Origin: an uncultured Oscillospiraceae bacterium
Lineage (GTDB): Bacteria > Bacillota > Clostridia > Acetivibrionales > DTU013
DNA length: 64,000 nucleotides
Direction: 5' to 3'
Assembly: GCA_964587755.1 (NCBI GenBank)
Contig: CAZPMC010000006.1
Location: 5,488 to 69,487 of the forward strand
Positions within the stretch are counted from its first letter, which is position 1. The number at the start of each line of letters is the position of its first letter. A program made the translations under genes and the position numbers. The notes below the pieces were generated by a model that ran no database searches, had not been told where the DNA came from, and worked only from the letters and a program-made list of their open reading frames with translations. Below are positions 21,839 through 51,845 of this stretch, one piece after another.

Positions 21839-21841
21839 GTT

Positions 21842-23200: not shown

Positions 23201-23263
23201 AATTTTGGAAGGCAATAGTTTTAAGCGATATAAATTTGGAATGATAGGAGATGGATAACTGCA

Positions 23264-24619: not shown

Positions 24620-24650
24620 ATATTTAAGCATGAGGAAGGAGCCAGTTAAG

Positions 24651-27434: not shown

Positions 27435-27458
27435 TAAAGGTTGGAAAGAGGATTTAAT

Positions 27459-29566: not shown

Positions 29567-29589
29567 ATATGAAAGGCAGGAGTACTCAT

Positions 29590-31094: not shown

Positions 31095-31118
31095 ATAAAG
31101 TAATTAAGGAGGCAGGAA

Positions 31119-33688: not shown

Positions 33689-33706
33689 ATAGTCAGATAT
33701 GACTAT
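33689..33706. promoter_or_regulatory. 18-bp palindrome ATAGTCA-GATA-TGACTAT at the rpiB/mcp junction
   Basis: Perfect 7-bp inverted repeat overlapping the rpiB stop codon. It shares the TGACTA core with the direct repeats at 35205-35223. Confidence 0.3.
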
Positions 33707-36601: not shown

Positions 36602-36632
36602 TTCGGCAACTTATTCTATTAACATAAAAGAT

Positions 36633-36661
36633 TTGACAATTCTAGCGTGTGCATATATACT
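36633..36661 (+). promoter_or_regulatory. sigma-A promoter of the BMP-type ABC transporter block
   Basis: TTGACA (36633-36638), 17-nt spacer, TATACT (36656-36661). Gives a 5' UTR of about 160 nt. Confidence 0.6.
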
Positions 36662-36677
36662 ATAAACACACAAAGAT

Positions 36678-36703
36678 GTAACTAAAAATTATGCCACAGT
36701 TAC
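36678..36703. promoter_or_regulatory. inverted repeat GTAACT-N14-AGTTAC just downstream of the promoter
   Basis: 6-bp perfect arms located at about +15 to +40 relative to the predicted transcription start. Confidence 0.3.
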
Positions 36704-36825
36704 TAACCACATTACAAAAATATAACAATACATAAATTATTAATCCTGTATATAATATGCTAATTTTCAAACTTTTATATTTGTTAGGTACCGTCAAGGG
36801 ATCAAAATAAAAAGGAGGAAATTCA

Positions 36826-37923
36826 ATGAAAAGGGTATTAAATGGAAAACTAGCAATGTTGTTAGTACTCGTACTGGTTGTATCGTTGTTCGCAGGATGT
36901 GGAAGCGCTAATAAGCAAACTCCATCTGATACAACGACACCGGCGGCGGAAACTACACAAGCAGAAGCAACTCAACAGGAAGAAGCACAAGATGAAAAGT
37001 TAACAATGGTCATGATTACAGATGCAGGCGGCCTAGGCGACAAAGGCTTTAACGACATCATCTGGAAGGGCATGGAGAAGGCAAGAGATGACCTCGGATT
37101 TGAGATCGCAGTCATTGAGTCAAGCGAAGCCGCACAATACGGTCCTAACATAGCAGCGGCAGCAGAGCAGGGATATGACATAGTTGTACTGGTTGGATTC
37201 TTGTTCACTGACGTACTTGCACAGGTTGCACCTCAATATCCGGACACTCATTTTGTAATGATAGACGGTGAAGTACCGGGTGACAATGTTTATTCATTCA
37301 AGTTTGAGCTTCAGCAATCAGGCTTCTTAGCCGGAGCACTTGCAGGCCTAATGAGCGAATCAAACAAATTCGGCGTTGTAGGTGGAATGGAAATACCTGA
37401 CGTTGTAGCTTGGGAATCAGGCTTTGCTTCCGGAATCAAAACTACACGTCCTGACTCTGAAATCAATATCACATACGTCGGCTCATTCGCTGACCCGGGT
37501 AAAGCCAAAGAATTAGCTCTTGCACATTTCAATAACGGCGCAGACATCTGCATGGAAATTTCCAGCGGTGGTGCGATTGGCGTTATAGAAGCAGCACGTG
37601 ATGCCAACAAAAAATTCGTTGCAACAGATAGCAGTAAAGATGAATTAGCTCCCGGACATGAGTTTACAGCAGCTCTTGCAAAAAGAGACGAAGCCGTATA
37701 CGCAGTTGCAAAAATGATTAAAGAAGGAACAGCAAAACCAGGCATCACTTACCTCTCAATGAAAGACGGTATCTTCGGTTTGCCAGAAGACACAGAAGAA
37801 AGATATGGAAGCGAAGCAGCAGCAACTATTGAAAAACTCAAGGAAATGATCTTAAGCGGAGAACTTGTCGTACCTAAGACAAAAGAACAGGTTGCAGCAT
37901 ACGAACCACCAACACTTGATTAA
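36826..37923 (+). CDS. BMP-family ABC substrate-binding lipoprotein (PnrA/nucleoside-binding type)
   Basis: Lipobox LFAGCGS, a Thr/Glu/Gln-rich linker, DAGGLGDKGFND and the GVVGGMEIP pattern typical of Bmp/PnrA proteins. Confidence 0.85.
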   Translation: MKRVLNGKLAMLLVLVLVVSLFAGCGSANKQTPSDTTTPAAETTQAEATQQEEAQDEKLTMVMITDAGGLGDKGFNDIIWKGMEKARDDLGFEIAVIESSEAAQYGPNIAAAAEQGYDIVVLVGFLFTDVLAQVAPQYPDTHFVMIDGEVPGDNVYSFKFELQQSGFLAGALAGLMSESNKFGVVGGMEIPDVVAWESGFASGIKTTRPDSEINITYVGSFADPGKAKELALAHFNNGADICMEISSGGAIGVIEAARDANKKFVATDSSKDELAPGHEFTAALAKRDEAVYAVAKMIKEGTAKPGITYLSMKDGIFGLPEDTEERYGSEAAATIEKLKEMILSGELVVPKTKEQVAAYEPPTLD

Positions 37924-37981
37924 ACTAATTACAGATCCAGCAAAGAACAAAAATCGGTGAGAACGTCTTCATTAAGCAGAC

Positions 37982-38006
37982 AAGCCTTCTCAATTTGAGA
38001 AGGCTT
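37982..38006 (+). other. perfect intercistronic hairpin after the binding-protein gene
   Basis: AAGCCTTCTCA-att-TGAGAAGGCTT (11-bp stem) with no following T-run. Lies 16 nt upstream of the ATPase start codon. Confidence 0.6.
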
Positions 38007-38022
38007 CCTGCGGGGAGGTTTA

Positions 38023-39573
38023 ATGAATAATATCATTGAAATGAGAAATATCGTCAAGAAATTTGGCGACTTTGTAGCTAACGATAATATTAATCTTGAA
38101 GTCAGAGAAGGAGAGATACATGCCTTGCTCGGTGAAAACGGAGCAGGTAAAAGTACTCTTATGAATGTACTGTATGGACTATATTCTCCCGATGGAGGGG
38201 AAATATATTTCAAGGGAGAAAAGGTCGAAATTAAAGGACCCTGTGATGCCATCAAATTGAATATCGGTATGGTTCATCAACACTTCATGTTAATACCTGT
38301 ATTTACCGTAGCCGAGAACCTGATACTTGGGGCTGAACCGGTTAAAGGCATATCCCTCGACATCAAGAAGGCAATATCACAAATCGAAACAGTTTCAAAG
38401 GAGTACGGCCTTGCTGTTGACCCTAATGCGCTGATTTCCAATATATCTGTTGGAATGCAGCAAAGAGTTGAAATTCTTAAGGTTTTGCTCCGCGGAGCTA
38501 AGGTTTTAATTTTTGACGAGCCGACAGCTGTTTTGACACCACAAGAAATAACTGAATTCTTTGGGATATGCAGAACCCTTCAGGCTCGTGGACATACGAT
38601 TATTATAATCACACACAAGCTTAAGGAAATAAAACAGATAAGTGACAGGGTTACTGTTATAAGAAAAGGTAAGAATATCGGGACTGTTGACACAAACACT
38701 GTCAGTGAACAGGACTTAGCCGAAATGATGGTTGGCAGAAAGGTTATACTGTGTGCAAATAAGAGTGAACAGGAATGTGGTTCACCGGTTCTTGAAATAG
38801 AGGATCTGCACGCAAATAATTACAGAGGCCTGCCAGCACTGCAAGGCTTGTCCTTGAAGGTATGTGCCGGCGAAATAGTGGGAATCGCAGGCGTTGAAGG
38901 CAACGGGCAGACAGAGCTGGCCCTTGTATTGAAAAAGCTTATAAACAAGACTAAAGGAACAATAAAGTTCTGCGGTAAGGAATATACAAAGAAAACTACA
39001 ACCCAGGGACTTATCGATGCAGGCCTTGCTCATATCCCTGAGGATAGGCAGAAACACGGCTTGATTTTGAACTTTTCCATAAAAGAAAATCTTATACTTG
39101 GATGCGAAGACAAGTCAGAATTTACAAAAAGCGTGTTTTTAGATGAGAAAAAAATCAGTTCTTACGGAGATGTTTTAATAGAAGAGTATGATATTAGATG
39201 CAGGGGAGCTGACATGCTGGCAGGAGGATTGTCGGGAGGAAATCAGCAAAAAGTCATACTGGCTCGTGAAATCTCGAGAAATCCTAAGCTGTTAATCGTA
39301 TCGCAGCCGACAAGAGGGCTTGATGTCGGCGCTATAGAGTATGTACATGCCCAGCTTCTTGAACAAAGGAAAAAGGGTTGTGCAATATTGCTGATATCCT
39401 ATGAGCTGGACGAAATAATGTCCTTAAGTGATAGAATACTGACAATTTACAACGGGAAAATTGTTTCAGAACACAGATGCTGCGATGTGACAAGAGAAAC
39501 GATCGGACTAGCAATGACAGGCATAACACAACACAAACAAGTAAACGATACGTCCCAAGAAGGAGTACAATGA
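38023..39573 (+). CDS. ABC transporter ATP-binding protein with duplicated ABC domains (nucleoside/sugar type)
   Basis: 516 aa. Walker A GENGAGKST, the first signature region, a second domain with LSGGNQQK, and Walker B. Confidence 0.9.
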   Translation: MNNIIEMRNIVKKFGDFVANDNINLEVREGEIHALLGENGAGKSTLMNVLYGLYSPDGGEIYFKGEKVEIKGPCDAIKLNIGMVHQHFMLIPVFTVAENLILGAEPVKGISLDIKKAISQIETVSKEYGLAVDPNALISNISVGMQQRVEILKVLLRGAKVLIFDEPTAVLTPQEITEFFGICRTLQARGHTIIIITHKLKEIKQISDRVTVIRKGKNIGTVDTNTVSEQDLAEMMVGRKVILCANKSEQECGSPVLEIEDLHANNYRGLPALQGLSLKVCAGEIVGIAGVEGNGQTELALVLKKLINKTKGTIKFCGKEYTKKTTTQGLIDAGLAHIPEDRQKHGLILNFSIKENLILGCEDKSEFTKSVFLDEKKISSYGDVLIEEYDIRCRGADMLAGGLSGGNQQKVILAREISRNPKLLIVSQPTRGLDVGAIEYVHAQLLEQRKKGCAILLISYELDEIMSLSDRILTIYNGKIVSEHRCCDVTRETIGLAMTGITQHKQVNDTSQEGVQ

Positions 39574-40682
39574 TGAATAAGAAGAGCTCGGGTATAAAGA
39601 GTATTTTATACAAAGCGTTAGATATGTTTCTTGACCCCATTATGGCAATAATATTTTCCCTTGTATTGGGAGCTATTATAATAGGGTCACTTGGATATGA
39701 CGTGAGCAAGGCATATAAAGCACTTGCATCAGGCGCATTTGGCAGCATCCGCTCAATTGGTCAGACGCTGCTTGCCGCCACACCTCTTATGTTTACCGCC
39801 ATGGCGTTTTCAATGGCCTACAGGTGCGGAATGTTTAACCTGGGTGGAGAAGGTCAGTTCTATTCGGGTGCCATTTTAGGTGCCTGGGTCGGGTTTGCCA
39901 TTAAGGGATTACCTGCACCGGTGCATATTTTGGTAGTTATTTTAGCAGGTGCCTTGGGGGGTATGATTACTGCATTTGTTCCCGGTATTCTCAAAGCGAA
40001 GCGCGGTGTTCATGAGGTTATAATTTGTATAATGATGAACTACATTGCTATAAATACAACTAATTATCTGGTGAGTTCCGGTGGTCCCCTTCGTCTTGGG
40101 AGCACAATGCCGGCAACACCCATAATACAGGAATCTGCAAAGCTCCCAATTGTGATTAAGGGTACTACTTTTACTGGTGGATTTTTTATAGCATGTCTGA
40201 TAGCCATAATTTATTACTTCTTCTTATGGAAAACGCGTGAAGGTTACAAAATAAGGGCAGTTGGAGGAAACCCTACTGCGGCTGAGTGCGGTGGTATCAG
40301 AAGTACAAAGTATTCTGTAATTGCACTTGTGATTGCGGGAGCAATGGCCGGAATCGGCGGATCTATTGAAATCATTGGAATACATAACAGATTCTATGCA
40401 AATTTCTCTTCAGGCTATGGTTTTGAAGGTGTTGCAGTAAGTATGCTCGGCGGAAACCATCCATTTGGAATCATTCTCTCGTCATTGTTATTCGGCGCCT
40501 TAAAATCAGGTGCTATGGCTATGCAAATTCAAGCGGGGACGAATGCGGAGCTGGTAAAAATCCTCCAAGCTCTTGTAATTTTCTTCATAGCCGGGAAATG
40601 GAGCATTCTGTATTTAATCACAAGGGCGAGAAAAAAGCGTCAAAACAACAAAAGTATGGATTTAAACATGGTCCAGGAATGA
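39570..40682 (+). CDS. ABC transporter permease (BMP-system, first permease)
   Basis: Polytopic membrane protein. The start ATG at 39570/39573 overlaps the ATPase stop, with AGGAG at 39561-39565. The ORF-track start at 39477 is an upstream extension inside the ATPase gene. Confidence 0.85.
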   Translation: MMNKKSSGIKSILYKALDMFLDPIMAIIFSLVLGAIIIGSLGYDVSKAYKALASGAFGSIRSIGQTLLAATPLMFTAMAFSMAYRCGMFNLGGEGQFYSGAILGAWVGFAIKGLPAPVHILVVILAGALGGMITAFVPGILKAKRGVHEVIICIMMNYIAINTTNYLVSSGGPLRLGSTMPATPIIQESAKLPIVIKGTTFTGGFFIACLIAIIYYFFLWKTREGYKIRAVGGNPTAAECGGIRSTKYSVIALVIAGAMAGIGGSIEIIGIHNRFYANFSSGYGFEGVAVSMLGGNHPFGIILSSLLFGALKSGAMAMQIQAGTNAELVKILQALVIFFIAGKWSILYLITRARKKRQNNKSMDLNMVQE

Positions 40683-40695
40683 GGAGGAAACTGCT

Positions 40696-41628
40696 GTGGA
40701 AGAAATTTTATCAATATTTAGCACAGGCTTTTTTGCTTCCGCTCTACGTATGGCAACACCGCTTATACTCGGTGGTATCGGCGCATTGTTCTCGGAGCGA
40801 GCCGGTATATTAAACCTTGGCGTTGAAGGTATGATGCTTATGGGAGCATTTGTTGCAGCTATTACATCACTTTTTACAGGAAGCCCTTGGCTAGGCGTTC
40901 TTGGTGGCGCTGCAGCCGGCGGACTGGTAGGCTTGCTGCATGCTTTCATGTGTATAAAAGTAAAAGCAAATCAAACTGTTATTGGTACAGGTATTAATAT
41001 TATGGCAATGGGGGTTCCCCCCATGATATTGCAGGCGCTCTACGGAAATCCGGGAAGCACACCCAGTGTTCCCAGCCTTAATTCAATAAGCATACCTGGT
41101 TTAAAGAGCGTACCTATTCTCGGTGAAATAATAGGAACACACAACCCGCTTACTTATATTGCTTTGCTGCTTGTACCCATAACCACGTTTTTTCTGTACA
41201 GAATGAAGACCGGACTTCAGATAAGAGCGGTGGGTGAGCATCCATTGGCTGCGGACACTGTGGGTGTTAATGTTTTCAGGATAAAGTACGGCTGTGTTAT
41301 TTTCAGCGGTGTTCTCTCCGGTATAGCCGGTGCATATTTGTCCCTTAGCCAGGTAGCCATGTTTGTAAAGGGAATGACAAACGGGCGTGGATTTATGGCA
41401 ATGGCAGCAATGATATTTGGAAACTGGACACCGGTGGGAGTATTTAAGGGTTCATTGCTGTTTGGTTTTGCAGACAGCCTTCAGATGTCTATTCAGGTTG
41501 CAGGCTGGCCTATACCTACAGACTTTTTGCTCAGCTTGCCTTATATACTGACAATAATTACCCTGGCGGGATTCGTAGGTAAGGCAGTCGGACCAAAGAG
41601 CGTCGGAAAGCCTTACATAAAAGAATAG
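40696..41628 (+). CDS. ABC transporter permease (BMP-system, second permease)
   Basis: 310 aa, polytopic. GTG start 7 nt after GAGGAGG. Confidence 0.85.
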   Translation: MEEILSIFSTGFFASALRMATPLILGGIGALFSERAGILNLGVEGMMLMGAFVAAITSLFTGSPWLGVLGGAAAGGLVGLLHAFMCIKVKANQTVIGTGINIMAMGVPPMILQALYGNPGSTPSVPSLNSISIPGLKSVPILGEIIGTHNPLTYIALLLVPITTFFLYRMKTGLQIRAVGEHPLAADTVGVNVFRIKYGCVIFSGVLSGIAGAYLSLSQVAMFVKGMTNGRGFMAMAAMIFGNWTPVGVFKGSLLFGFADSLQMSIQVAGWPIPTDFLLSLPYILTIITLAGFVGKAVGPKSVGKPYIKE

Positions 41629-41652
41629 CCAGAATAGTTGGGAGTAAAATTA

Positions 41653-43020
41653 ATGCTAGAAAATAAGCAATCTATTTTAATAAAAAACGCTCTTGTAGTA
41701 ACGATGAATCCCCATGATGAAATTTTCCGTGGAAGCATTTACATTGTGGACGGCAGGATTAAAGAAGTCGGTACTAAAAGAGAGACGGCAGACAAGGTGA
41801 TTGATGCCGGCGGCAGAATTGTAATGCCGGGATTTATTCAGACTCACATTCACCTGTGTCAGGTATTGTTCAGGGGATTAGCAGACGACATGGATGTTGT
41901 TGATTGGCTAAAGCATAGAATATGGCCCTTTGAATCAGCACATAATGAGGACTCAATAAATGCGTCGGCGTATCTAGGTATTGCAGAGCTTATTGCCGGC
42001 GGTACAACAACGGCATTAACAATGGAAACCACTCGGTACACCGACGGGGTTTTTTCCGCCATTGAGGAATCAGGATTCCGTGGGTTTTGCGGTAATGCCA
42101 TGATGGATGTGGTAGAGCCGGGAACAATGATGAAAGGACTAAGCACTCAGGAAAGTTTTGATGAGAGCAAGCGCCTTTTCAATACATGGCATGGAAAGGG
42201 AAACGGACGGGTCAATTATACAGTTATGCCCCGGGGAGCCAGAAATTGTTCTCCTGAGCTTGTTAAGCGTTCACATGCTTTTGCCCGGGAAAACGGACTG
42301 TTGCTGCACACCCATGTTTCTGAAAACGGGCCTTTGTCAGAAAGACTTAAAAAAGAAACGGGCTTAGGAGACATTGAGCTTCTCGAAAGTCAGGGCGTAG
42401 CTGACGAAAAACTAGTTGTTGCCCATGCCATATGGCTAAATGAAAATGATGTGGATATTATCAAGCGCAGGGGGGTAAAGATAGCCCATTGCCCTTCTGC
42501 CAATATGAAGCTCAGCTCAGGATTTTGTAAGGTTCCTGAAATGCTTGATATGGGGATTGACATTTCACTTGGCGCTGATGGAGCGCCATGCAACAATAAT
42601 CTGGATATGTTCAATGAAATGCGTCTAGCCAGCCTGATTCACAAGCCAAGATGCGGGCCTACATCAATGAAGGCATATGAGGTATTGAAGATGGCGACAA
42701 TGGGAGGCGCAAAATGCCTCGGAATTGAAAATGAAGTCGGAAGTCTTGAGACAGGCAAAAAGGCTGATATCATCATTATCAATACAGATGAGCTACACTG
42801 CAGTCCTATGGCAGGTGTTCCGGTAGAATCACAAATCGTGTACTCAATCAAGAGCTCAGATGTTGACACTACCATAATTGATGGTGTTGTTTTATATGAA
42901 AACAAAAAGTTTACGATAATGAACAAGAAAAAAATACTTGAGACTGCCGGAAGAGAAATTGAGAGGCTGTTAGACAGGGTGCCATTCGGCAAAGAGCTGA
43001 TAGAGTCGTTGCCGTATTAG
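41653..43020 (+). CDS. amidohydrolase, MtaD/guanine-deaminase-like (paralog 4)
   Basis: MPGFIQTHIHLCQ..RGLADDMDVVDWLKHRIWP, HTHVSE, GADG and GSLETGKKADIIII. ATG 41653 has a TGGGAG RBS. Confidence 0.8.
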   Translation: MLENKQSILIKNALVVTMNPHDEIFRGSIYIVDGRIKEVGTKRETADKVIDAGGRIVMPGFIQTHIHLCQVLFRGLADDMDVVDWLKHRIWPFESAHNEDSINASAYLGIAELIAGGTTTALTMETTRYTDGVFSAIEESGFRGFCGNAMMDVVEPGTMMKGLSTQESFDESKRLFNTWHGKGNGRVNYTVMPRGARNCSPELVKRSHAFARENGLLLHTHVSENGPLSERLKKETGLGDIELLESQGVADEKLVVAHAIWLNENDVDIIKRRGVKIAHCPSANMKLSSGFCKVPEMLDMGIDISLGADGAPCNNNLDMFNEMRLASLIHKPRCGPTSMKAYEVLKMATMGGAKCLGIENEVGSLETGKKADIIIINTDELHCSPMAGVPVESQIVYSIKSSDVDTTIIDGVVLYENKKFTIMNKKKILETAGREIERLLDRVPFGKELIESLPY

Positions 43021-43046
43021 ACGGATTAAAGGAGATGTATTATTTT

Positions 43047-43808
43047 ATGCGGCTTAAAAATAAGGTAGCACTTATAACCGGAGCGGGAACGGGAATGGGC
43101 AGAGAAACTGCAATGGAATTCCTGCGTCAGGGAGCAAAGGTGGTTATAGCTGATATTAATAAGGAAGCACTGGATACGGCAGTAGCCAAGGGGAAGGAAA
43201 TTTCTCCGGATATAACCGGTGTGCATGCAGATCTTACGAATGAAGAAGACTGTAAAAGATTTATTGATACGGCAGTTGAAGCATACGGAACAATAGACGT
43301 ATTGTTTAACAATCTTGGTATTAACCTTGCCGCTACCATAACCCAGACTACTTTAGAGCAGTGGGATAAGATATTTGCCGTAAATGTAAGAGCAATGTTT
43401 TTGACATGCAAGTACACGCTTCCCATAATGATGAAAAACGGGGGCGGTTCCATTATAAACACTTCATCTGGCGGTGGTATTGTTGCGCTTAAGGGACTTG
43501 CGGCATACAGCGCATCAAAGGGCTCTGTAATTTCACTTACCAGAAGTATTGCAGTTGATTATGCACCATATAACATCCGGTGCAATTATCTCGTACCGGG
43601 AGTTATTATGACGGAAATGACTAAAAAGGTAATTGATGAACAGGAGGACCCTGAAGCATACGCTGAAAACATGAGGACTAACAATCCGTTGCAAAGATTC
43701 GGAACAGAAAATGAAATTGCAATGGCAGCTGTATTTTTAGCTTCAGATGATACCAGATTTATGACAGGGGCAGGAGTCGTCGCCGACGGCGGATATTCAG
43801 CCCAATAA
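43047..43808 (+). CDS. SDR-family oxidoreductase (tandem paralog 1)
   Basis: TGAGTGMG cofactor motif, NNLG, and the YSASK catalytic motif. Start chosen by alignment with the paralog beginning MRLKDK. Confidence 0.85.
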   Translation: MRLKNKVALITGAGTGMGRETAMEFLRQGAKVVIADINKEALDTAVAKGKEISPDITGVHADLTNEEDCKRFIDTAVEAYGTIDVLFNNLGINLAATITQTTLEQWDKIFAVNVRAMFLTCKYTLPIMMKNGGGSIINTSSGGGIVALKGLAAYSASKGSVISLTRSIAVDYAPYNIRCNYLVPGVIMTEMTKKVIDEQEDPEAYAENMRTNNPLQRFGTENEIAMAAVFLASDDTRFMTGAGVVADGGYSAQ

Positions 43809-43860: not shown

Positions 43861-44622
43861 ATGCGGTTAAAGGATAAAGTAGCAATTATTACCGGAGGCG
43901 CAAAAGGGATGGGCAGAACAAGCGTGCTCAGATTCCTGGAAGAGGGTGCAAAGGTAGTAGTTGCTGATATAGACGAAAAGGGAATGCTTGAAACTGTAGA
44001 ACTAGGCAAGCAGATTAGTGAAAATGTAATAGGCATGAAGGTAGATTTGACAAAGGAAAATGAAGTTAAAAATTTAGTTGATAAAACAGTCGAAGCTTTT
44101 GGGACAATAGATGTGCTTTTTAATAATGCAGGTATGAATCATGCTGCGCTCTTACATGAAACAACCCTGGAGGACTGGGAGCTTGTTTTTGATGTGAATG
44201 TCAAGAGCATGTTTCTCACATGTAAATATGTTCTGCCCATTATGATGGAAAAGCGCAAGGGCTCCATAATAAACACAGCATCACCCGGGGCATTAGTAGG
44301 CTTAAGAGGAATTTCAGCTTATTGCGCATCGAAAGGTGCAGTCCCGTCACTAACAAGAAGTATTGCTATTGACTATGCCCAGTACAATATCAGAGCTAAT
44401 TTTCTGTGCCCGGGTGTTATTTTGACAGAAATGACAGAAAAAATTATTCAGTCCAAGCCGGACCCGGATGAGTTCAGAGAATGGTACCGTAAGGCAAGGC
44501 CGCTGGGACGATTTGGCGAGCCTGTTGAAATAGCAAATGCCGCAGTTTATCTGGCATCAGATGAAACAACATTTATGACAGGTGCCTCCATTGTAGCAGA
44601 TGGTGGGTTTACAGCACAATAA
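43861..44622 (+). CDS. SDR-family oxidoreductase (tandem paralog 2)
   Basis: TGGAKGMG, NNAG and YCASK. Collinear with the upstream SDR along its whole length. Confidence 0.85.
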   Translation: MRLKDKVAIITGGAKGMGRTSVLRFLEEGAKVVVADIDEKGMLETVELGKQISENVIGMKVDLTKENEVKNLVDKTVEAFGTIDVLFNNAGMNHAALLHETTLEDWELVFDVNVKSMFLTCKYVLPIMMEKRKGSIINTASPGALVGLRGISAYCASKGAVPSLTRSIAIDYAQYNIRANFLCPGVILTEMTEKIIQSKPDPDEFREWYRKARPLGRFGEPVEIANAAVYLASDETTFMTGASIVADGGFTAQ

Positions 44623-44644: not shown

Positions 44645-45595
44645 TTGAAAATTTATATGCCTACAGTTTTTCCCGATCCTTTAATGGAAGGCTGGGATTC
44701 AGATATTGTACTTGATGTCAACCGTACCGGGTATCCGGTAAGCAGGGAGGAAATGAAGGAGCACATTAAGGATGCTGATGCTGTTATCATAAACCTTGAT
44801 GATGTATTTGACAAAGAGATGATTGACAGTGCCCCAAAATTGAAGGTTATTACCTTATTTGCAGGCAGCACTTACAATATTGATGTGGAATACGCCAAAA
44901 GCCGCGGGATTACAGTGTGTACCACCCCCGGCGAGATTTTTGAAAACACGGCAGACTTGACGTTTGCGCTTTTATTGTCTGCTGCCAGAAGGATACCTGA
45001 GGCAGACAGATATATCCGTGCCGGCAAATATAACAATTGGTGCCCCGCAGACCTTTTAGGCAGTGATATTTATGGGAAGACACTTGGAATATTAGGCCTA
45101 GGTATGATTGGCACTGCAGTGGCAAGACGTGCAAAAGGTTTTAATATGAAGATACTCTATAATGCTGCCCGTGGACCTAAGCCGGAACTGGAAGAGGAAC
45201 TTGGCTGCCAATTCGTTTCATTTGAAGAACTTATTAAGCAATCCGACTTTTTAAGCTTACACTGCAAGCTAAATCCTGACACTGAACACATTATTGGCAG
45301 GCGCGAGATTTCTATGATGAAAAAAAGCGCCTATTTGATTAATACGGGAAGAGGAAAGCTTGTTGACGAAGAAGCACTGGCTGATGCTTTGGAGGCAAAA
45401 GAAATCGCAGGTGCAGGACTTGATGTATTCGAATATGAGCCGAAGGTTACACAAAAGCTTTTAACATTAGATAACGTTGTTTTGACACCACATCTGGGAG
45501 CATCAAGCCTGGACAACCGTTTGGAGATGGCAAGAATTGCATTCCGTTGTACAAGGGATGCCCTGAAAGGCTTAGAACCGGAGTTCCATGCGTAA
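44645..45595 (+). CDS. D-isomer-specific 2-hydroxyacid dehydrogenase (glyoxylate/hydroxypyruvate reductase-like)
   Basis: GILGLGMIGTAVARR NAD motif, NTGRGKLVDE and TPHLGAS. TTG 44645 sits 8 nt after GGGAGG; ATG 44657 is an alternative start. Confidence 0.82.
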   Translation: MKIYMPTVFPDPLMEGWDSDIVLDVNRTGYPVSREEMKEHIKDADAVIINLDDVFDKEMIDSAPKLKVITLFAGSTYNIDVEYAKSRGITVCTTPGEIFENTADLTFALLLSAARRIPEADRYIRAGKYNNWCPADLLGSDIYGKTLGILGLGMIGTAVARRAKGFNMKILYNAARGPKPELEEELGCQFVSFEELIKQSDFLSLHCKLNPDTEHIIGRREISMMKKSAYLINTGRGKLVDEEALADALEAKEIAGAGLDVFEYEPKVTQKLLTLDNVVLTPHLGASSLDNRLEMARIAFRCTRDALKGLEPEFHA

Positions 45596-45656: not shown

Positions 45657-46688
45657 ATGGCAAAAGTAAAGGTTGGTGTAGCAGGCTATGGTGTTATCGG
45701 CCAACGCCTTGCAGATGGTGTTGCACTTCAGGAGGATATGGAGCTTGTAGGTATTGCTGATGTGGCTCCAACACTTTCTATCAGAGCTTTAAAAGAAAAG
45801 GGTATGCCCTACGACCTGTATTTGGTAAATGGCAGCAATAAGTCACAGTTTGATGAGCTTAACATTCCTGTCTCGGGCACCTTTGACGACCTTCTTGACA
45901 AAGTAGACATCATGCTTGATTCATCACCCGGCGGTGTAGGAGAAAAGAATAAGGAAATCTACCAGGCGAAGGGTGTAAAGGCAATATTTCAGGGTGGAGA
46001 AAAGAACTCTGTTGCAGATGTCTTTTTCCATGGTTATGCCAACTATGAAAAGGGATTAAATCAAAATTACCTTAAGCTTACAAGCTGTAACACCACCGGT
46101 TTAATACGTTCGGTTGACTGCCTTGACAGGCTTTTCGGAATTGAAAGAGTTGCAATTACTATAGTTAGACGTGTTGCAGACCCCGGCGACTATCATAGGG
46201 GCTTGACAAATGCTTTACAGATGGAAAAAGCACCGTCACATCAGGCTGTTGACCTTATGGAAATCATGCCCCATGTGGAGGCTACAGGAATACTTGTTCA
46301 CACTCCAGTAACCCATGGACATATTATTACTGTAGTAGCTAAGGGCAAAGAGAAAATTACTAAGGAAATGGCTCTTGAAGCATTTTCAAAGCATGAACGC
46401 ATCAGAATAGTTTCAATTGACGAAGGCTTTAAGGGGAATGCATCTTTGTTCAGATATGCCCGTGACCTTGGTAACCCCAGAGGCGATATGTACGAGATTG
46501 CCATATGGTCTGACTCTATTGTTGAATACGGTGACGAAATCATGTTTGCTATAAACATTCCCCAGGAGGCTGTAACAATACCTGAAACCATTGATGGAAT
46601 CAGGGCGGCAATGGGAATGCAAACCGATAGATTAGAGGCTGTTGGGAAAACAAATAAATATTTGGGGTTGGGAAAGTGGAAAAAATGA
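45657..46688 (+). CDS. gap: glyceraldehyde-3-phosphate dehydrogenase, type II (archaeal type)
   Basis: 343 aa. KVGVAGYGVIGQRLADGVALQEDMELVGIAD and the catalytic SCNTTGL, as in archaeal phosphorylating GAPDH rather than the bacterial SCTTN type. Confidence 0.8.
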   Translation: MAKVKVGVAGYGVIGQRLADGVALQEDMELVGIADVAPTLSIRALKEKGMPYDLYLVNGSNKSQFDELNIPVSGTFDDLLDKVDIMLDSSPGGVGEKNKEIYQAKGVKAIFQGGEKNSVADVFFHGYANYEKGLNQNYLKLTSCNTTGLIRSVDCLDRLFGIERVAITIVRRVADPGDYHRGLTNALQMEKAPSHQAVDLMEIMPHVEATGILVHTPVTHGHIITVVAKGKEKITKEMALEAFSKHERIRIVSIDEGFKGNASLFRYARDLGNPRGDMYEIAIWSDSIVEYGDEIMFAINIPQEAVTIPETIDGIRAAMGMQTDRLEAVGKTNKYLGLGKWKK

Positions 46689-47929
46689 GAATTAAACAAC
46701 TTAATGGGATGAATGTAAGTGGAAAGCATGTACTTTTTCGTCCTGACATAAATTCTCCCATAGATCCTGATACGAAGAAAATTGTTAATGACAACAGAAT
46801 CAGAAAAATGGCCCCGACTCTTAAGTACCTTCTTGATGCAGGCGCTGCTGTTGCTATTATCGCACATCAGGGAGATACGCTGGACTACCAGAATTTGATA
46901 TCAATGCAAGAGCACGCTGAAAAGCTGTCTGAGGTAGTCGGATCTGAGATTAAATATATTGATGATGTGTGCGGGGATGCCGCCATAGCTTACGTCAAAG
47001 CCTTAAAGCCCGGCGAATGCATATTGCTTGGGAACTTGCGTTACCTTACCGAGGAGGTATCCACATTTGAACGGGATGTAAAGCTTACACCCGAACAGAT
47101 GAAGGATACATATCTCATTCGCAGGCTGGCGCCTTTGTTTGATCTCTATGTAAATGACGCTTTTTCTGCAGCCCATAGAAATTGTCCGAGCATGACGGGA
47201 TTTCAACACCTGCTTCCGTCAGCGGCAGGATTTCAGTTTTCCGATGAGTATTTTGCACTCAGCTCAGTGCGGGACAATACCAAGAGCCCTGCAGTGTTTG
47301 TGCTTGGCGGCGCCAAAATAAGCGATGCCTTCGGAATGATTGAGACTGTTCTTAAAAATGGAACGGCGGACAAGATATTAACAACAGGTATTACGGCAAT
47401 AACAATGCTGATTGCGTCAGGAGCTGACGTTGGAGAAAAGACATTAAAATTTCTAAAGGACAGGGATCTACTTGTTTTTGCAGAGCCGGCAAAAAAATAC
47501 TTAAAGGAATATGGCAGTAAAATAGAAATGCCTGTCGATTTAGCATATGAAGACAATGGTAGCCGGAAAGAAATAAGTGTTGATAAATTGCCTTTGGATA
47601 CTTTATATCCGGATATCGGGTCTAAAACCATAGAAAAATACTCATCCATACTAAAGGATGCAGGCACAATATTTGCAAACGGACCAGCCGGAGTTTACGA
47701 GAATCCGCTTTTCACAAACGGAACAGAGGGTATATGGAAAGCAATTGCTGACAGTGACGCCTATTCTGTCATTGGCGGTGGTGATACTGTAAGCTCTGCG
47801 ACAAAGTTTATAGATGTAAAGAAAATAAGCTATGTATGTACAGCCGGCGGAGCAATGGTGCGTTTTATGTCGGGTAAGAAATTACCGTTGATAGAGGCAA
47901 TGGAAAATTCATATGGAGGTGTGAAATGA
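46685..47929 (+). CDS. pgk: phosphoglycerate kinase, archaeal-like
   Basis: VLFRPDINSPIDP, AHQGD...DY, LGNLRYLTEEV and YVNDAFSAAHRNCPSMTGF resemble archaeal PGK, not the bacterial SHLGRPKG type. ATGA overlap with gap. Confidence 0.78.
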   Translation: MRIKQLNGMNVSGKHVLFRPDINSPIDPDTKKIVNDNRIRKMAPTLKYLLDAGAAVAIIAHQGDTLDYQNLISMQEHAEKLSEVVGSEIKYIDDVCGDAAIAYVKALKPGECILLGNLRYLTEEVSTFERDVKLTPEQMKDTYLIRRLAPLFDLYVNDAFSAAHRNCPSMTGFQHLLPSAAGFQFSDEYFALSSVRDNTKSPAVFVLGGAKISDAFGMIETVLKNGTADKILTTGITAITMLIASGADVGEKTLKFLKDRDLLVFAEPAKKYLKEYGSKIEMPVDLAYEDNGSRKEISVDKLPLDTLYPDIGSKTIEKYSSILKDAGTIFANGPAGVYENPLFTNGTEGIWKAIADSDAYSVIGGGDTVSSATKFIDVKKISYVCTAGGAMVRFMSGKKLPLIEAMENSYGGVK

Positions 47930-48750
47930 CCCCACTAAAGAAGTTTGCAACACAAATACGAATAGAGCAGATTAAATGTATTAAGCATCGCGGCTTTGGA
48001 CATATAGGGGGCGCTTTGTCGGCAACCGACCTGATAGCGGCACTCTACGGCGGTATCATGCGAATTGATCCGAAGAATCCAGAATGGCAGGACAGGGACA
48101 GGTTTGTATGCTCCAAAGGCCATGCCGGGCCTGCATTGTATGCAGCACTGGCTTTGAAGGGTTATTTCCCGTTTGATTGGCTTCTGACACTGAACAGACC
48201 AGGGACAAAGCTTCCCAGTCACTGTGATATGAATCTTACACCGGGTATCGATATGACAACCGGCTCTCTTGGTCAGGGAGCATCGACTGCCGCAGGCATG
48301 GCACTTGCACTGAAAAACAGTAAATCGGACGCCCGGGTCTACTTGCTTCTTGGCGATGGCGAATGTAATGAGGGTCAGGTGTGGGAAATGGTTATGTTTG
48401 CTGCAGCCAAAAAAATAAATAATCTTATTGCCTTTGTAGACTATAACCACAAACAGTTAGATGGCAGGACTGAGGATATCATTGATTTAGGTGATTTAAA
48501 ATCAAAGTTTGAATCCTTCGGTTGGTTTACCCAGTCTGTGGATGGCAACGATCCGGATGTAATTTTTGAAGCCATAAACAAAGCCAAAGACGAGCAAGGT
48601 GACAGACCTGCGATGATAATATTGAACACAATAAAGGGTGCTGGAGTTCCTTCAATAGAGAAAATGGAATTTAATCACCACATAAATATGAGTCCGGAAT
48701 TCTCGGATGAAGCAATAGCACATCTTGAGAAATTGCTTGAGGAGGTGTAG
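47926..48750 (+). CDS. transketolase, N-terminal (ThDP-binding) subunit
   Basis: 274 aa. GHIGGALSATDLIAALY and GDGECNEGQVWE. ATGA overlap with pgk. Confidence 0.9.
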   Translation: MTPLKKFATQIRIEQIKCIKHRGFGHIGGALSATDLIAALYGGIMRIDPKNPEWQDRDRFVCSKGHAGPALYAALALKGYFPFDWLLTLNRPGTKLPSHCDMNLTPGIDMTTGSLGQGASTAAGMALALKNSKSDARVYLLLGDGECNEGQVWEMVMFAAAKKINNLIAFVDYNHKQLDGRTEDIIDLGDLKSKFESFGWFTQSVDGNDPDVIFEAINKAKDEQGDRPAMIILNTIKGAGVPSIEKMEFNHHINMSPEFSDEAIAHLEKLLEEV

Positions 48751-48752
48751 AG

Positions 48753-49709
48753 ATGTTTACAGTTATTTATAATGGTGAATATGAAAAGGTTCTATTGAGG
48801 GACGTTTTTGCAAGTACTATGGAAAAGCTGTTTAAGCTTGACGATCAGGTAGTGTATCTTGATGCAGATCTGATGAACGCTTTTTCTACCCTCCAGTTAT
48901 CTAAAGATTACCCTGAAAAGGCAATTGACTGTGGTGTGCAGGAAGCCAATATGATCGGTATCGCAGCCGGCATGTCGGCAGTGGGGAGAAAACCGTATGT
49001 TCATACATTTGCAGCCTTTGCGTCCAGGCGCTGTTTTGACCAGGTATTCTTATCCGTAGGGTATTCTAAGAACAGTGTCCGGATTATTGGTTCAGATGCA
49101 GGTGTTACTGCTGCATACAATGGCGGAACACATATGCCCTTCGAGGATGTAGCAATGTACAGGACTATTCCCGGTGCAGCCGTTTTTGATATTGTGGATT
49201 CAGTACAATTTGAAAATGTATTGATGAACACAAAGGACAGACCCGGAGTTACATATATCCGTACAATCCGAAAAAAAGCGGTGGGTGTGTATGGTCCCGG
49301 CAGTGAATTTGAAATAGGGAAAGCCAACGTATTGCGGGATGGTTCAGATGTGACTATCATTGCATGCGGAATCATGGTTGCTGAGGCTCTAAAGGCTGCC
49401 CAAATCCTTGAAGAGCAGGGCATATCTGCCGCAGTTATTGATATCGTTACCATTAAGCCCGTTGACGAGCAAACTGTCATAGAATATGCAAAAAAGACCG
49501 GTGCTGTCGTGACTGCTGAAAATGCAAATATTATAGGCGGGCTTGGCAGTGCGGTTGCGGAAGTAGTAAGCAGGAAGCAGCCCACTAAGATGGGGTTTGT
49601 AGGTATAAATGACCTGTACGGGGAAGTCGGGGAAGAGGAATACTTGAGACAGCGTTTTGAACTGACTCCCGAGAAAATCGTAAAGGTAGTAAAGGATACA
49701 GTTAAATAA
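48753..49709 (+). CDS. transketolase, C-terminal (pyrimidine-binding) subunit
   Basis: 318 aa. DCGVQEANMIGIAAG and the GGTHMPFEDVAMYR pattern. Starts 2 nt after the N-terminal subunit gene. Confidence 0.9.
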   Translation: MFTVIYNGEYEKVLLRDVFASTMEKLFKLDDQVVYLDADLMNAFSTLQLSKDYPEKAIDCGVQEANMIGIAAGMSAVGRKPYVHTFAAFASRRCFDQVFLSVGYSKNSVRIIGSDAGVTAAYNGGTHMPFEDVAMYRTIPGAAVFDIVDSVQFENVLMNTKDRPGVTYIRTIRKKAVGVYGPGSEFEIGKANVLRDGSDVTIIACGIMVAEALKAAQILEEQGISAAVIDIVTIKPVDEQTVIEYAKKTGAVVTAENANIIGGLGSAVAEVVSRKQPTKMGFVGINDLYGEVGEEEYLRQRFELTPEKIVKVVKDTVK

Positions 49710-49745: not shown

Positions 49746-50513
49746 ATGAGTACGTCACTTTTTGATTTAACCGGAAAGATGGCCTTGATAACAGGGTCAG
49801 GGCAAGGCCTTGGCTTTGTAATAGCAAGAGGATTGGGAAAAGCAGGCGCAACTATAGTTTTAAATGATATTGATAAGGATAAATTGGATAAAGCAGTTGA
49901 GATTTTGAGAAATGAAGGGATTGAAACCCACGGAAGCTTGTTCAATGTCACAAAGAAGGATGAAATCGAGAAGGAAGTCAGGTTCATTGAGGAGAAAATA
50001 GGGCCTATTGACATACTTTTCAACAATGCAGGGATACAGCGCAGAATTCCTTTGGAAGATTTCCCTGAATCCGACTGGGATGATATAATGGAGATAAACT
50101 TAAAAGGTGTTTTCCTGACAAGCCAGCAGGTTGTTAAGGGAATGATCTCGCGCAGAAGAGGCAAGATTGTAAATATTTGCTCACTTCAAAGCGAGCTGGG
50201 ACGTCAAACCATAGCACCCTATGCTGCATCTAAAGGCGGTGTAAAGATGCTGACCCGGGGGATGGCTGTTGACTGGGGCAAGCACAATATTCAGACTAAC
50301 GGAATAGGGCCAGGTTATTTTATTACTGAAATGACGCAGAAGCTGGCAGACGACCCGGAATTTGACGCGTGGCTTAAGGCAAGAACTCCGGCAGACCGCT
50401 GGGGATTTCCGGAAGAGCTGGTGGGCACTGCAATTTTCCTGTCCTCTGAAGCATCTAACTTTATTAACGGCCAGATTATTTATGTTGACGGGGGCATATT
50501 AGCTTCAATCTAA
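49746..50513 (+). CDS. SDR-family oxidoreductase, gluconate 5-dehydrogenase/KduD-like
   Basis: LFDLTGKMALITGSGQGLG, NNAG, YAASKGG and a C-terminal GQIIYVDGG. Confidence 0.8.
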   Translation: MSTSLFDLTGKMALITGSGQGLGFVIARGLGKAGATIVLNDIDKDKLDKAVEILRNEGIETHGSLFNVTKKDEIEKEVRFIEEKIGPIDILFNNAGIQRRIPLEDFPESDWDDIMEINLKGVFLTSQQVVKGMISRRRGKIVNICSLQSELGRQTIAPYAASKGGVKMLTRGMAVDWGKHNIQTNGIGPGYFITEMTQKLADDPEFDAWLKARTPADRWGFPEELVGTAIFLSSEASNFINGQIIYVDGGILASI

Positions 50514-50529: not shown

Positions 50530-51108
50530 ATGACAGCTATAATATTGGCGGCAGGTTTTTCAAAGCGATTTAGGGGAAATAAACTGCTTGCCAAAATTAA
50601 TGGAAAACCCATAATTTCACGAGTTGTTGAAACTGTTCAGAAATGCGGCTTCGAGGAGATTATCCTTGTAAGCCGTTCTTCTGATGTAAAAGAGTTTTTT
50701 AAAGACGCAGATATAAAGGTCGTAATTAATGACAATGCGGCACTTGGAATCAGCACGTCCATAAAATGCGGTATTAGAAATGCCAGGTCTTCGGATTCAT
50801 TTATGTTTTTTGCGGCAGACCAACCCTTTATAGATGAAAAAACTGTTAAAGCATTGTTAGGAGCCTATAAAAACAAGAAGGGTTCTATAATAGTACCCAA
50901 ATACAATGGCGTCAACGGTAACCCTGTTATTTTTGCAGGACGTTGGAAGACAGAGCTTCTAATGTTGACAGGTGATATTGGAGGAAGGGCTATAATAAAA
51001 GCAAATCCTGATAAGGTTCATTATGTGCAGATAGATAATGAGGCTGCAGGAATAGATATAGATACAAGGGATGATTACAGGCTTAACAAAAACAGAGAAA
51101 ACAGCTAG
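50530..51108 (+). CDS. MobA-like nucleotidyltransferase, probable molybdenum cofactor cytidylyltransferase (MocA/YgfJ-like)
   Basis: 192 aa. The N-terminal AIILAAGFSKRFRGNKLL is typical of MobA/MocA NTP-transferases. Confidence 0.72.
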   Translation: MTAIILAAGFSKRFRGNKLLAKINGKPIISRVVETVQKCGFEEIILVSRSSDVKEFFKDADIKVVINDNAALGISTSIKCGIRNARSSDSFMFFAADQPFIDEKTVKALLGAYKNKKGSIIVPKYNGVNGNPVIFAGRWKTELLMLTGDIGGRAIIKANPDKVHYVQIDNEAAGIDIDTRDDYRLNKNRENS

Positions 51109-51113
51109 ATTTA

Positions 51114-51845
51114 TCAGTGAAATACAGCCTTATCAAGCACTTGCCCGATAGGCTCCTTTATAATCAGGTCAGCCCTGTCATCATAAGCGGTGGAAGATTT
51201 GTTGATTAATACAAGCCTGCTGCCTTTGTAATAATTTATAAGACCGGCTGCAGGATATACTGCAAGGGATGTTCCGCCTACAATGAGAGTGTCGGCTTTT
51301 ATTATATATTCTATAGCCTTACTCAAAATATCGTTGTCTAAAGCTTCTTCATAAAGAGTTACGTCAGGCCGGACAATATTTGTGCATTTATCACACTTAG
51401 GAACCGTATCGGCAGAATTTATAATATAGGACAAATCAAACTTTTTTCCACAACCTGTACAGTAATTTCTATGCACTGAGCCGTGGAGCTCAAATACATT
51501 TACGCTTCCGGCTAATTGGTGCAGTCCGTCTATATTTTGGGTTATCACGGCTTTAAGTGAGCCCCTCTCTTCAAGTGCGGACAGTGCTATATGAGCTTTA
51601 TTGGGTTTAGCATCTAAAAAAATCATATTATTTTTATAAAAATCAAAAAATTCCTCAGGATGGCTGACAAAAAAGGAATGACTAAGCATCACCTCAGGAG
51701 GATAGCCAAATTTTTTTATGGTTTTATAAATGCCGTCCTCACTTCTGAAATCAGGTATGCTGCTTTCTGTTGAAACACCTGCTCCGCCGAAAAATACGAT
51801 ATTTTGGGATTGGGCCAAAATATTTTTAAGCTTATCGATGCTCAA
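51114..51845 (-). CDS. cobB: NAD-dependent protein deacylase (Sir2 family)
   Basis: 243 aa. FFGGAGVSTESSIPDFRS, QNIDGLH and a zinc ribbon CTGCGKKF...CDKC. Confidence 0.9.
   Translation of the reverse strand: MSIDKLKNILAQSQNIVFFGGAGVSTESSIPDFRSEDGIYKTIKKFGYPPEVMLSHSFFVSHPEEFFDFYKNNMIFLDAKPNKAHIALSALEERGSLKAVITQNIDGLHQLAGSVNVFELHGSVHRNYCTGCGKKFDLSYIINSADTVPKCDKCTNIVRPDVTLYEEALDNDILSKAIEYIIKADTLIVGGTSLAVYPAAGLINYYKGSRLVLINKSSTAYDDRADLIIKEPIGQVLDKAVFH

Follow-up and report, generated by a model that had tools for sequence, protein, structure and literature searches.

We analyzed a stretch of 64,000 nucleotides (the window) from contig CAZPMC010000006.1 of an uncultured Oscillospiraceae bacterium. 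The analysis centered on four consecutive genes encoding a homologue of glyceraldehyde-3-phosphate dehydrogenase (GAPDH) of type II (gene gap), a phosphoglycerate kinase (PGK)-like kinase (pgk), and the two subunits of a split transketolase (tktN and tktC) (Table 1). The gap and pgk genes were found to overlap in an ATGA start/stop motif at positions 46685-46688, and pgk and tktN in another at 47926-47929, while the spacer between tktN and tktC is 2 nt long (48751-48752). All three junctions were read in the sequence, in agreement with the initial annotation, which had proposed translational coupling of the four genes. The motifs quoted there (GYGVIGQR, SCNTTGL, AHQGD..DY, LGNLRYLTEEV, and AHRNCPSMTGF) were likewise all found in the translations. 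A ribosome-binding site, GGGAGG, is located 5' of gap. An alternative GTG start for pgk is present at 46676, and the public gene call gives exactly the 414-aa product that starts from the ATG at 46685. A scan of the window for promoters and terminators returned sites no more common than in shuffled sequence and was not used to set operon boundaries.

The GAPDH scored 407 bits against the type II GAPDH model NF003251 (cut-off 185) and 301 bits against TIGR01546 (cut-off 233), and a search of the PDB matched four archaeal type II structures only. Its initial assignment to type II is therefore correct. Relatives were identified in at least 569 of at least 599 matched stretches in a scan of one genome per species. 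The best 80 relatives were 76-85% identical to the window GAPDH and were found in Clostridia, Anaerolineae, Treponema and other Spirochaetes, Synergistaceae, Desulfovibrionaceae, and Planctomycetes. A library clustered at 50% identity contained two full-length representatives of the clade, which share 78 and 62% identity with the window protein; the next full-length proteins, outside the clade, reached at most 45%. Clade members aligned with each other at a median identity of 83%, the lowest value being 58%, and the identity between clade members and any other type II sequence did not exceed 48%. Judged by these comparisons, "type II" and "archaeal-like" are correct family labels, yet the genes belong to an old bacterial clade.

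The composition of the four genes matched that of their surroundings. GC content was 0.437 against 0.432 ± 0.021 for the rest of the window, GC3 was 0.407 against 0.402 ± 0.031, and the codon-frequency correlation was 0.94 against a control value of 0.935 ± 0.024. Recent horizontal transfer was rejected on this basis. The earlier suggestion that the genes were possibly acquired horizontally is not favored, since no sign of recent acquisition is visible in their composition and they represent an old clade found across the bacteria and not an archaeal lineage.

The roles of residues in type II GAPDH follow PMC12041015, which cites Charron et al. (2000) for them. The catalytic Cys140 (in SCNT) and the base His219 were found invariant in the window GAPDH and in 43 of 43 clade members. 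Ser139, Asn141, Arg167, Arg168, and His193 were also kept, with Arg167 and Arg168 forming the substrate-phosphate site. The only change in the inorganic-phosphate site (Ser139/Asn141/Arg167/His193/His194) was at position 194, which is Gln in all 43 clade members compared to His in 60 of 74 other sequences. The NADP determinant Lys33 is replaced by Asp in 43/43 members, and the clade thus lacks the NADP+-binding lysine. An acidic residue at this position predicts a preference for NAD+, in keeping with a catabolic function in the oxidative direction. Only one assay of a bacterial type II GAPDH has been published; in it the P. thermosuccinogenes enzyme had no activity on glyceraldehyde-3-phosphate (G3P) with NAD+ or NADP+, while the two type I GAPDHs of the same organism were both active (PMC6543838). 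The substrate of the clade is probably not G3P, unlike that of the archaeal type II enzymes.

The PGK-like kinase matched the Pfam model PGK (PF00162) over its full length (363 bits, model positions 3-379). Its best PDB match was the Pyrococcus horikoshii enzyme with 289 bits, while the best bacterial PGK reached 216 bits. PGK-like proteins encoded next to a clade GAPDH fall into class A, 59-67% identical to the window PGK, and class B, 40-45% identical, and all 63 of 63 scored higher to archaeal than to bacterial PGK irrespective of class. The resemblance to archaeal PGK noted initially therefore holds for the whole group. Asp23, Asn25, Arg38, His62, Arg122, Arg170, Lys219, Glu343, and the GGGD motif were invariant in both classes, as was the NGPxG motif in module PGKs. 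We take the basic patch that holds the 3-phosphate of 3-phosphoglycerate (3PG) to be formed by Arg38, His62, Arg65, Arg122, and Arg170. This patch is incomplete in the window PGK, where Arg65 is Asp and Pro66 is Thr, and the other four residues are kept. The pair Arg65-Pro66 was changed to Asp-Thr in 27/27 class A proteins and to Ser-Asp in 35/35 class B proteins. The corresponding residues are Arg-Pro in G. stearothermophilus and Lys-Pro in P. horikoshii, and Lys or Arg followed by Pro was found in 118 of 120 Thermococcales PGKs. This archaeal sample is narrow, as the search with the P. horikoshii PGK gave Thermococcales only, and the reference sets for the residue comparisons of PGK and transketolase are small.

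The two transketolase subunits together carry the Transketolase_N, Transket_pyr, and Transketolase_C domains, as expected for the split type. TktN scored 171 bits against Transketolase_N and contains the catalytic histidines. The best PDB matches of TktN and TktC were the split transketolase entries of Carboxydothermus hydrogenoformans, 6yak (N subunit, 250 bits) and 6yaj (244 bits), respectively. A signature, GSDxGxxAA[YF]NGGTH, was found in TktC of the window and in all 28 transketolases linked to a clade GAPDH, whereas the C. hydrogenoformans and human enzymes read HxGxxxGEDGxxH/Q at the same site. In E. coli numbering His461 is changed to Asp, Glu468 to Tyr or Phe, and Asp469 to Asn in the window protein and in all 28. 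Arg520 was kept in the linked transketolases, and so was Arg358 (as Arg or Lys, with Thr in one). The window TktC deviates from the canonical pocket by His461Asp, Asp469Asn, and Ser385Ala and retains Arg358, His473, and Arg520. Cleavage of a non-phosphorylated ketose with an anionic tail by a split transketolase is known from the sulfo-TK pathway of sulfoquinovose degradation.

By their hidden Markov model (HMM) matches the window proteins belong to the families of type II GAPDH, PGK, and transketolase, and each lacks one substrate-site feature that defines its family. All three enzymes are thus changed family-wide at positions that bind the phosphate or the adjacent hydroxyl, with the catalytic machinery intact.

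The gene neighborhood was compared in 82 loci, consisting of the best 80 GAPDH loci, the window, and locus L081. Open reading frames (ORFs) were called and clustered, and representatives were used in tblastn searches. A PGK-like gene was found within 400 bp of the GAPDH gene in 73 of the 82 loci. Neighbors were counted in those 48 loci that extend 6 kb or more to each side of GAPDH, and a PGK-like neighbor was present in 44 of these. A thiamine diphosphate (ThDP)-dependent enzyme that cleaves C-C bonds was present in 27 (a split transketolase in 24, an E1 component instead in 3), a LarA homologue in 27, a malic enzyme in 11, and three or more of iolB/D/E/G in 14. The LarA homologue scored 415 bits to the malate racemase Mar2 (6d6z) compared to 236 bits to lactate racemase. 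DeoR homologues flank GAPDH in at least 12 loci. In locus L082 the order of genes by Pfam was IolG, MFS, IolD, IolE, IolB, LacI, LarA, type II GAPDH, PGK, tktN, tktC. In five loci that combine inositol genes with the module (L082 and the flanks of L044, L037, L068, and L069), no PfkB kinase (IolC), aldolase (IolJ), or aldehyde dehydrogenase (IolA) was found. Clusters of inositol genes plus module are also carried by the cultured Dorea sp. D27 (L059) and Treponema primitia ZAS-10 (L055). The neighborhood does not match the classical gap-pgk-tpi-gpm-eno operon; around the pair stand transketolase, LarA, malic enzyme, and iol genes. ORF clustering and sampled Pfam scans, which included no queries for tpi, gpm, or eno, did not recognize any of these three genes among the recurrent neighbors of the 82 loci. 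This layout agrees with the initial view of an accessory, ATP-yielding module, where the yield of ATP is a prediction.

The GAPDH, PGK, and TktC of the window are approximately 80%, 60-67%, and 55-59% identical to those of loci with malate racemase and malic enzyme, to which they are orthologous. The four window genes represent a single copy of a three-enzyme module that is widespread in bacteria. Variants of the module were also observed. In L061 a full E1alpha/E1beta/E2/E3 complex with the lipoylation genes LplB and LipA replaces the transketolase beside type II GAPDH, PGK, malic enzyme, and racemase. E1/E2/E3 together with a gene resembling 3-hydroxyacyl-CoA dehydrogenase occupy the place of transketolase in L052, L058, and L061 (4306-16354 in the latter), and this variant cluster is flanked by subunits of the xanthine dehydrogenase (XDH) family and XdhC. 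Two copies of type II GAPDH per genome were found twice, as L021 and L029 on contig CAXXUL010000003.1 and as L017 and L049 in the metagenome-assembled genome (MAG) UBA6114. In these genomes one copy stands with transketolase only (no PGK) or alone, and the copy at L029 belongs to a full inositol cluster that also has PGK, racemase, and transketolase.

We infer all functions proposed below, including substrates and direction, from gene context, stereochemistry, and residue patterns. With a probability of roughly 0.55 we consider that the transketolase cleaves a 5-keto-aldonate, and that GAPDH and PGK oxidize the resulting D-malate or L-tartrate semialdehyde via an acyl phosphate with a yield of ATP. 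Fischer projections were worked out by hand. The product of IolB, 5-dehydro-2-deoxy-D-gluconate, was found to be a ketose with the D-threo configuration at C3/C4 that transketolase needs when read from its CH2OH end, and 5-keto-D-gluconate agrees with it in configuration. After cleavage OHC-CHOH-CH2-COO- or OHC-CHOH-CHOH-COO- remains, with the carbon next to the aldehyde configured as in D-G3P. These semialdehydes are look-alikes of D-glyceraldehyde-3-phosphate that carry a carboxylate in the place of the phosphate, and their oxidation gives (R)-malate or (R,R)-tartrate (Cahn-Ingold-Prelog priorities checked by hand). The known link from 5-ketogluconate to L-(+)-tartrate agrees with the stereochemistry derived here.

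In the proposed route the split transketolase, with its remodeled pocket, would take a ketol-ended sugar acid of D-threo configuration. In inositol clusters the donor would be 5-dehydro-2-deoxy-D-gluconate; in the window it may be 5-keto-D-gluconate or a related compound. A C2 unit would pass to an acceptor, leaving a four-carbon (2R)-2-hydroxy-aldehyde acid, that is D-malate or L-tartrate semialdehyde. The type II GAPDH homologue, with its predicted preference for NAD+, would oxidize this aldehyde with phosphate to an acyl phosphate, and the PGK homologue would act as acyl-phosphate:ADP phosphotransferase, forming ATP and D-malate or L-tartrate. Judged from the neighboring genes, the D-acid would enter central metabolism by malate racemase and malic enzyme at most loci. 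In the window it would do so by the L(+)-tartrate dehydratase TtdAB, the D-2-hydroxyacid dehydrogenase next to gap, or both. The L-tartrate dehydratase of E. coli accepts only D-malate and L-tartrate (bioRxiv 10.1101/2023.06.17.545066), exactly the two acids predicted as products of the module. The proposed route would account for the presence of a D-to-L malate racemase and a malic enzyme beside the module, and would explain why the anion-binding arginines are kept while the phosphate pocket is partly remodeled. It would require no other aldehyde dehydrogenase in the inositol clusters, and ATP would be gained, not spent.

We give about even odds to a broader statement, namely that bacterial type II GAPDH and its PGK partner do not belong to glycolysis and are a natural D-malate/L-tartrate semialdehyde dehydrogenase (phosphorylating) and malyl-/tartryl-phosphate:ADP phosphotransferase. 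With the specialized transketolase they would form an ATP-yielding branch for the fermentation of myo-inositol and other sources of 5-keto-aldonates in anaerobes of the gut, the rumen, and termites.

The genes surrounding the module in the window are included in Table 1.

Table 1. The four-gene string and neighboring features of the window (SDR, short-chain dehydrogenase/reductase; BMP and ABC denote transporter families).
Feature	Position	Strand	Basis
gap, type II GAPDH homologue, 343 aa	45657-46688	+	ORF
pgk, PGK-like kinase, class A, 414 aa from ATG 46685	46685-47929	+	ORF
tktN, transketolase N-terminal, ThDP-binding subunit, 274 aa	47926-48750	+	ORF
tktC, transketolase C-terminal subunit, 318 aa	48753-49709	+	ORF
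D-isomer-specific 2-hydroxyacid dehydrogenase (glyoxylate reductase/D-glycerate dehydrogenase-like)	44645-45595	+	2-Hacid_dh_C, 217 bits
SDR resembling gluconate 5-dehydrogenase	49746-50513	+	NF005983, 377.5 bits (cut-off 408)
Two paralogous SDRs, 59% identical	43035-43808, 43861-44622	+	Both above NF005559 cut-off
Dihydropyrimidinase-like amidohydrolase, BMP-family binding protein, ABC ATPase, two permeases, deaminase	35303-43020	+	Same-strand upstream string
DeoR regulator, TtdA, TtdB (L(+)-tartrate dehydratase), DeoC-like aldolase	28802-31778	+	NCBIfam
RpiB/LacAB-like isomerase	33703-34164	-	Translation and syntenic LacAB_rpiB gene in L084
Ketose epimerase, IolO/psicose-3-epimerase type	34175-35044	-	NF041099, 231 bits (under cut-off 300)

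The 2-hydroxyacid dehydrogenase directly upstream of gap (316 aa in the public call) had glyoxylate reductase as its top NCBIfam model, with 300 bits and under the cut-off, and is a candidate consumer of the D-hydroxyacid product. Its ortholog family was also found in places where the module is absent. The SDR directly downstream of tktC bears the JGI name gluconate 5-dehydrogenase and is a candidate for making the 5-keto (ketol) donor of the transketolase. The upstream SDR pair scored 237 and 245 bits against NF005559, a glucose 1-dehydrogenase subfamily (cut-off 215). TtdA (501.5 bits, cut-off 365), TtdB (366, cut-off 264), and the DeoC-like aldolase (175, cut-off 117) all exceeded their cut-offs, and TtdAB is a candidate sink for D-malate or L-tartrate. 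The RpiB-like isomerase and the ketose epimerase form a divergent pair. Our best guess is that a 5-keto-aldonate feeds the transketolase in the window, with a pentose or 5-deoxypentose derived from nucleosides as the alternative.

Locus L081, whose GAPDH is 90% identical to that of the window, keeps the gene order of the window. Two further loci, L084 and L083 (the same as L006), are contiguous on one scaffold of a Bacillota MAG and hold the gene set of the window from 15.4 to 51.1 kb on one strand in a different order. The set ends with XDH-like, RidA, DeoR, TtdA, TtdB, DeoC-like, a pyridoxal phosphate (PLP) enzyme (PALP), tktN, tktC, type II GAPDH, PGK, malic enzyme, malate racemase, and a methyl-accepting chemotaxis protein (MCP), and in L083/L006 TtdAB stands in one string with tkt, gap, pgk, malic enzyme, and racemase. 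The link between TtdAB and the module in the window is therefore more than proximity. The transporter string at 35303-43020 recurs in L081, L084, L085, and L086, and in the last three it occurs without gap-pgk-tkt. A unit made up of BMP-ABC transporter, deaminase, SDR, and dehydrogenase was for this reason rejected as a fixed partner of the module, and the trio may well act on another substrate than this unit does. L086 lies in Neomoorella glycerini (CP046244.1, 2519041-2540015) and contains a unit of BMP-ABC, amidohydrolase, SDR, and 2-hydroxyacid dehydrogenase, after which come an XDH-family enzyme, an M20 peptidase, a gene resembling 3-hydroxyisobutyrate dehydrogenase, an ordinary aldehyde dehydrogenase, and a CdaR-type regulator. 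No type II GAPDH, PGK, or transketolase was found within this locus, and its arrangement with aldehyde dehydrogenase may be a non-phosphorylating alternative.

Other features of the window were noted. The mechanical ORF of the first permease (39477-40682) begins 97 nt inside the ABC ATPase gene, and the orthologues in L081 and L084 are 366-369 aa long, which suggests a true start near 39567-39573 that overlaps the stop of the ATPase. An MCP adjoins the module in the window (31940-33658, minus strand), in L006 (14832-16973), and in L061 (16400-18178). The three are only 24-31% identical to each other, the loci are otherwise arranged differently, and the MCPs could sense the substrate of the pathway. 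A same-strand island for degradation of N-heterocycles (purine-type) occupies 15410-28655. It contains three Amidohydro_1 proteins, two M20 peptidases, a PreA-like DHO_dh protein with a 4Fe-4S protein, a GH1 beta-glucosidase above its equivalog cut-off, a 942-aa molybdenum enzyme of the XDH family, and a PLP enzyme, a set that is syntenic in L084/L083. The GH1 gene is an odd member of this island. The operon ends with a MocA-like molybdenum cofactor cytidylyltransferase (178 bits, cut-off 186), which probably works for the XDH-family enzyme. A convergent gene for a Sir2-family deacetylase comes next (both within 50530-51845), and the same pair follows the operon in L081. At 8110-11520 a GntR/FCD regulator, a PfkB-family sugar-acid kinase with weak similarity to KDG (2-keto-3-deoxygluconate)/IolC kinase, and a 6-phosphogluconate dehydrogenase give a further hint of gluconate-type metabolism in the region. 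Two adjacent LeuA-family genes (HMGL-like with LeuA_dimer) follow ilvB/N/C at 3861-6976. By their coordinates they overlap by 4 nt (the first ends at 5405 and the second starts at 5402), and one of them may be a citramalate synthase.

Several observations weigh against the route to D-malate or L-tartrate. The proposal names no C2 acceptor for the transketolase, approximately 10 loci hold gap-pgk with no recognizable partner, and no iol, malate racemase, or malic enzyme genes were found in the window, so that the inositol route is not directly transferable to it. TtdAB of the window lies approximately 15 kb from the module with genes on the opposite strand in between. The GAPDH keeps all catalytic residues and both arginines of the substrate-phosphate site and passes the type II equivalog cut-offs, and the PGK keeps four of the five residues of the basic patch. 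From sequence, true activity on G3P and 3PG is thus possible. Such a reading would make the pair a genuine G3P dehydrogenase and 3PG kinase working with an ordinary transketolase, turning pentose phosphates from nucleosides or other sugars into 3PG and ATP as an extra or replacement lower glycolysis. Besides the HMM matches and the intact catalytic and most substrate-binding residues, it gains from the normal bacterial adjacency of gap and pgk. The nucleoside-type BMP transporter and deaminase in the same gene string and the nearby RpiB-like isomerase, ketose epimerase, and DeoC-like aldolase also suit it. The BMP-type ABC transporter, the two amidohydrolases, the isomerase, and the epimerase of the window could equally well feed a pentose. 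However, it leaves the invariant loss of Arg65-Pro66 in PGK and of His461/Asp469 in transketolase with no reason, and it explains neither the malate racemase, malic enzyme, and TtdAB partners nor the inositol clusters devoid of IolC/J/A or any other aldehyde dehydrogenase. Genes for nucleoside phosphorylase, phosphopentomutase, and ribokinase are missing from the operon, some genomes have type II GAPDH twice, and tpi, gpm, and eno were not recognized beside the pair in any locus, with the limit on queries given above. The inactivity of the P. thermosuccinogenes type II enzyme on G3P (PMC6543838) points the same way; that assay was made in E. coli extracts, and the protein was not placed in the clade here. 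Taken together, we regard this reading as unlikely. The G3P from pentose phosphates that the initial annotation had named as substrate is accordingly doubtful, given the substrate-site changes in all three enzymes and partners such as malate racemase, malic enzyme, TtdAB, and iolGEDB in the absence of iolCJA.

The same chemistry could also start from a pentose or 5-deoxypentose without phosphate and act on the uncharged aldehyde released from it, converting D-glyceraldehyde to D-glycerate or D-lactaldehyde to D-lactate. The D-lactaldehyde would stem from the 5-deoxyribose of 5'-deoxyadenosine, and the adjacent D-2-hydroxyacid dehydrogenase would produce hydroxypyruvate or pyruvate. The deaminase exceeded the cut-off of the 5'-deoxyadenosine deaminase model (545 compared to 522 bits), the RpiB-like isomerase and ketose epimerase could yield a D-threo ketose from ribose or 5-deoxyribose, and annotations of the 2-hydroxyacid dehydrogenase family read glyoxylate reductase or D-glycerate dehydrogenase. 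Uncharged substrates would also fit the fact that PGK and transketolase have lost phosphate-binding residues. On the other hand, the invariant Arg167/Arg168 of GAPDH and His62/Arg122/Arg170 of PGK argue for an anionic group on the substrate, the window trio is orthologous to trios beside malate racemase and malic enzyme, and the unit from BMP to dehydrogenase is found elsewhere without the trio. We therefore consider an uncharged substrate improbable and retain the 5-keto-aldonate route as the preferred reading.

If true, this route would for the first time assign a function to bacterial type II GAPDH, an enzyme with "no functional evidence in bacteria" according to a published survey (PMC6543838). 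Two enzyme activities and a subfamily of transketolase would be new as well. It would also explain why iolG/E/D/B are present without iolC/J in many anaerobes, as reported for bacteria in a metagenomic and isotope-probing study of the hen gut (PMC13617567). Annotation pipelines label the genes of the module as glycolysis, and metabolic models of communities in the gut and rumen are distorted as a result. The enzymes are possible parts for the production of tartrate, malate, or 2,4-dihydroxybutyrate. The canonical inositol route costs one ATP. The proposed branch would instead gain one by substrate-level phosphorylation, which matters for fermenters, and it would be a natural counterpart of malyl-phosphate chemistry so far held to be synthetic. 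In the full-text literature covered (subscription-only papers excluded) we found no description of this combination of enzymes, of a natural dehydrogenase forming malyl- or tartryl-phosphate, or of a function for bacterial type II GAPDH.

By analogy, the module would resemble in its working both the substrate-level phosphorylation of GAPDH/PGK and catabolic routes that depend on transketolase. With the archaeal type II GAPDHs (M. fervidus 1CF2 and P. horikoshii 2CZC) the window enzyme shares the HMM family, Cys140, His219, Arg167/Arg168, length, and fold family. It differs by belonging to a separate, bacteria-wide group that shares no more than 48% identity with the other type II enzymes, by His194Gln and Lys33Asp, and by its catabolic gene context. 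The window PGK has the full-length fold and the catalytic and nucleotide-binding motifs in common with the PGKs of P. horikoshii (2CUN) and G. stearothermophilus (1PHP), is closer to the archaeal enzyme, and shares Asp23, Asn25, Arg38, His62, Arg122, and Arg170 with both. Arg/Lys65-Pro66 is Asp-Thr instead (Ser-Asp in the sister class), and HxSTGGG reads YxCT(A/G)GG in module PGKs. The split transketolase of C. hydrogenoformans (6YAJ/6YAK) has the two subunits, the ThDP motifs, and the catalytic histidines in common with the window enzyme, while its HxGxxxGEDGxxH is DxGxxxA[YF]NGGTH in every module-linked transketolase.

At the level of pathways, the loci with inositol genes share the first four enzymes of the canonical myo-inositol pathway IolG-E-D-B-C-J-A, down to 5-dehydro-2-deoxy-D-gluconate. 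From there on they have transketolase, type II GAPDH, PGK-like kinase, racemase, and malic enzyme in place of kinase, aldolase, and malonate-semialdehyde dehydrogenase, and ATP would be gained where the canonical pathway spends it; the window itself has no iol genes. The "novel" inositol route of Dysosmobacter welbionis was considered as a match and rejected, as its chemistry is that of the canonical kinase and aldolase. In tartrate biosynthesis, transketolase has been proposed to cleave 5-keto-D-gluconate to tartaric semialdehyde, and E. coli TktA was engineered for this cleavage as R358I/H461S/R520Q (PMC12016104). The same C4-C5 cut of a 5-keto-aldonate is proposed here and His461 is altered in both cases, but in the module enzymes this change is natural and family-wide, and the aldehyde would proceed via an acyl phosphate and ATP, not via a non-phosphorylating semialdehyde dehydrogenase. 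Finally, the synthetic malyl-phosphate pathway (malate kinase and malate semialdehyde dehydrogenase) also has a hydroxy-dicarboxylate acyl phosphate and a semialdehyde as intermediates; it is man-made and reductive, uses enzymes of the aspartate pathway, and its semialdehyde is 2-hydroxy-4-oxobutanoate (PMC5481828). The module, in contrast, would occur in nature, run in the oxidative direction, consist of homologues of GAPDH and PGK, and proceed through a different semialdehyde.

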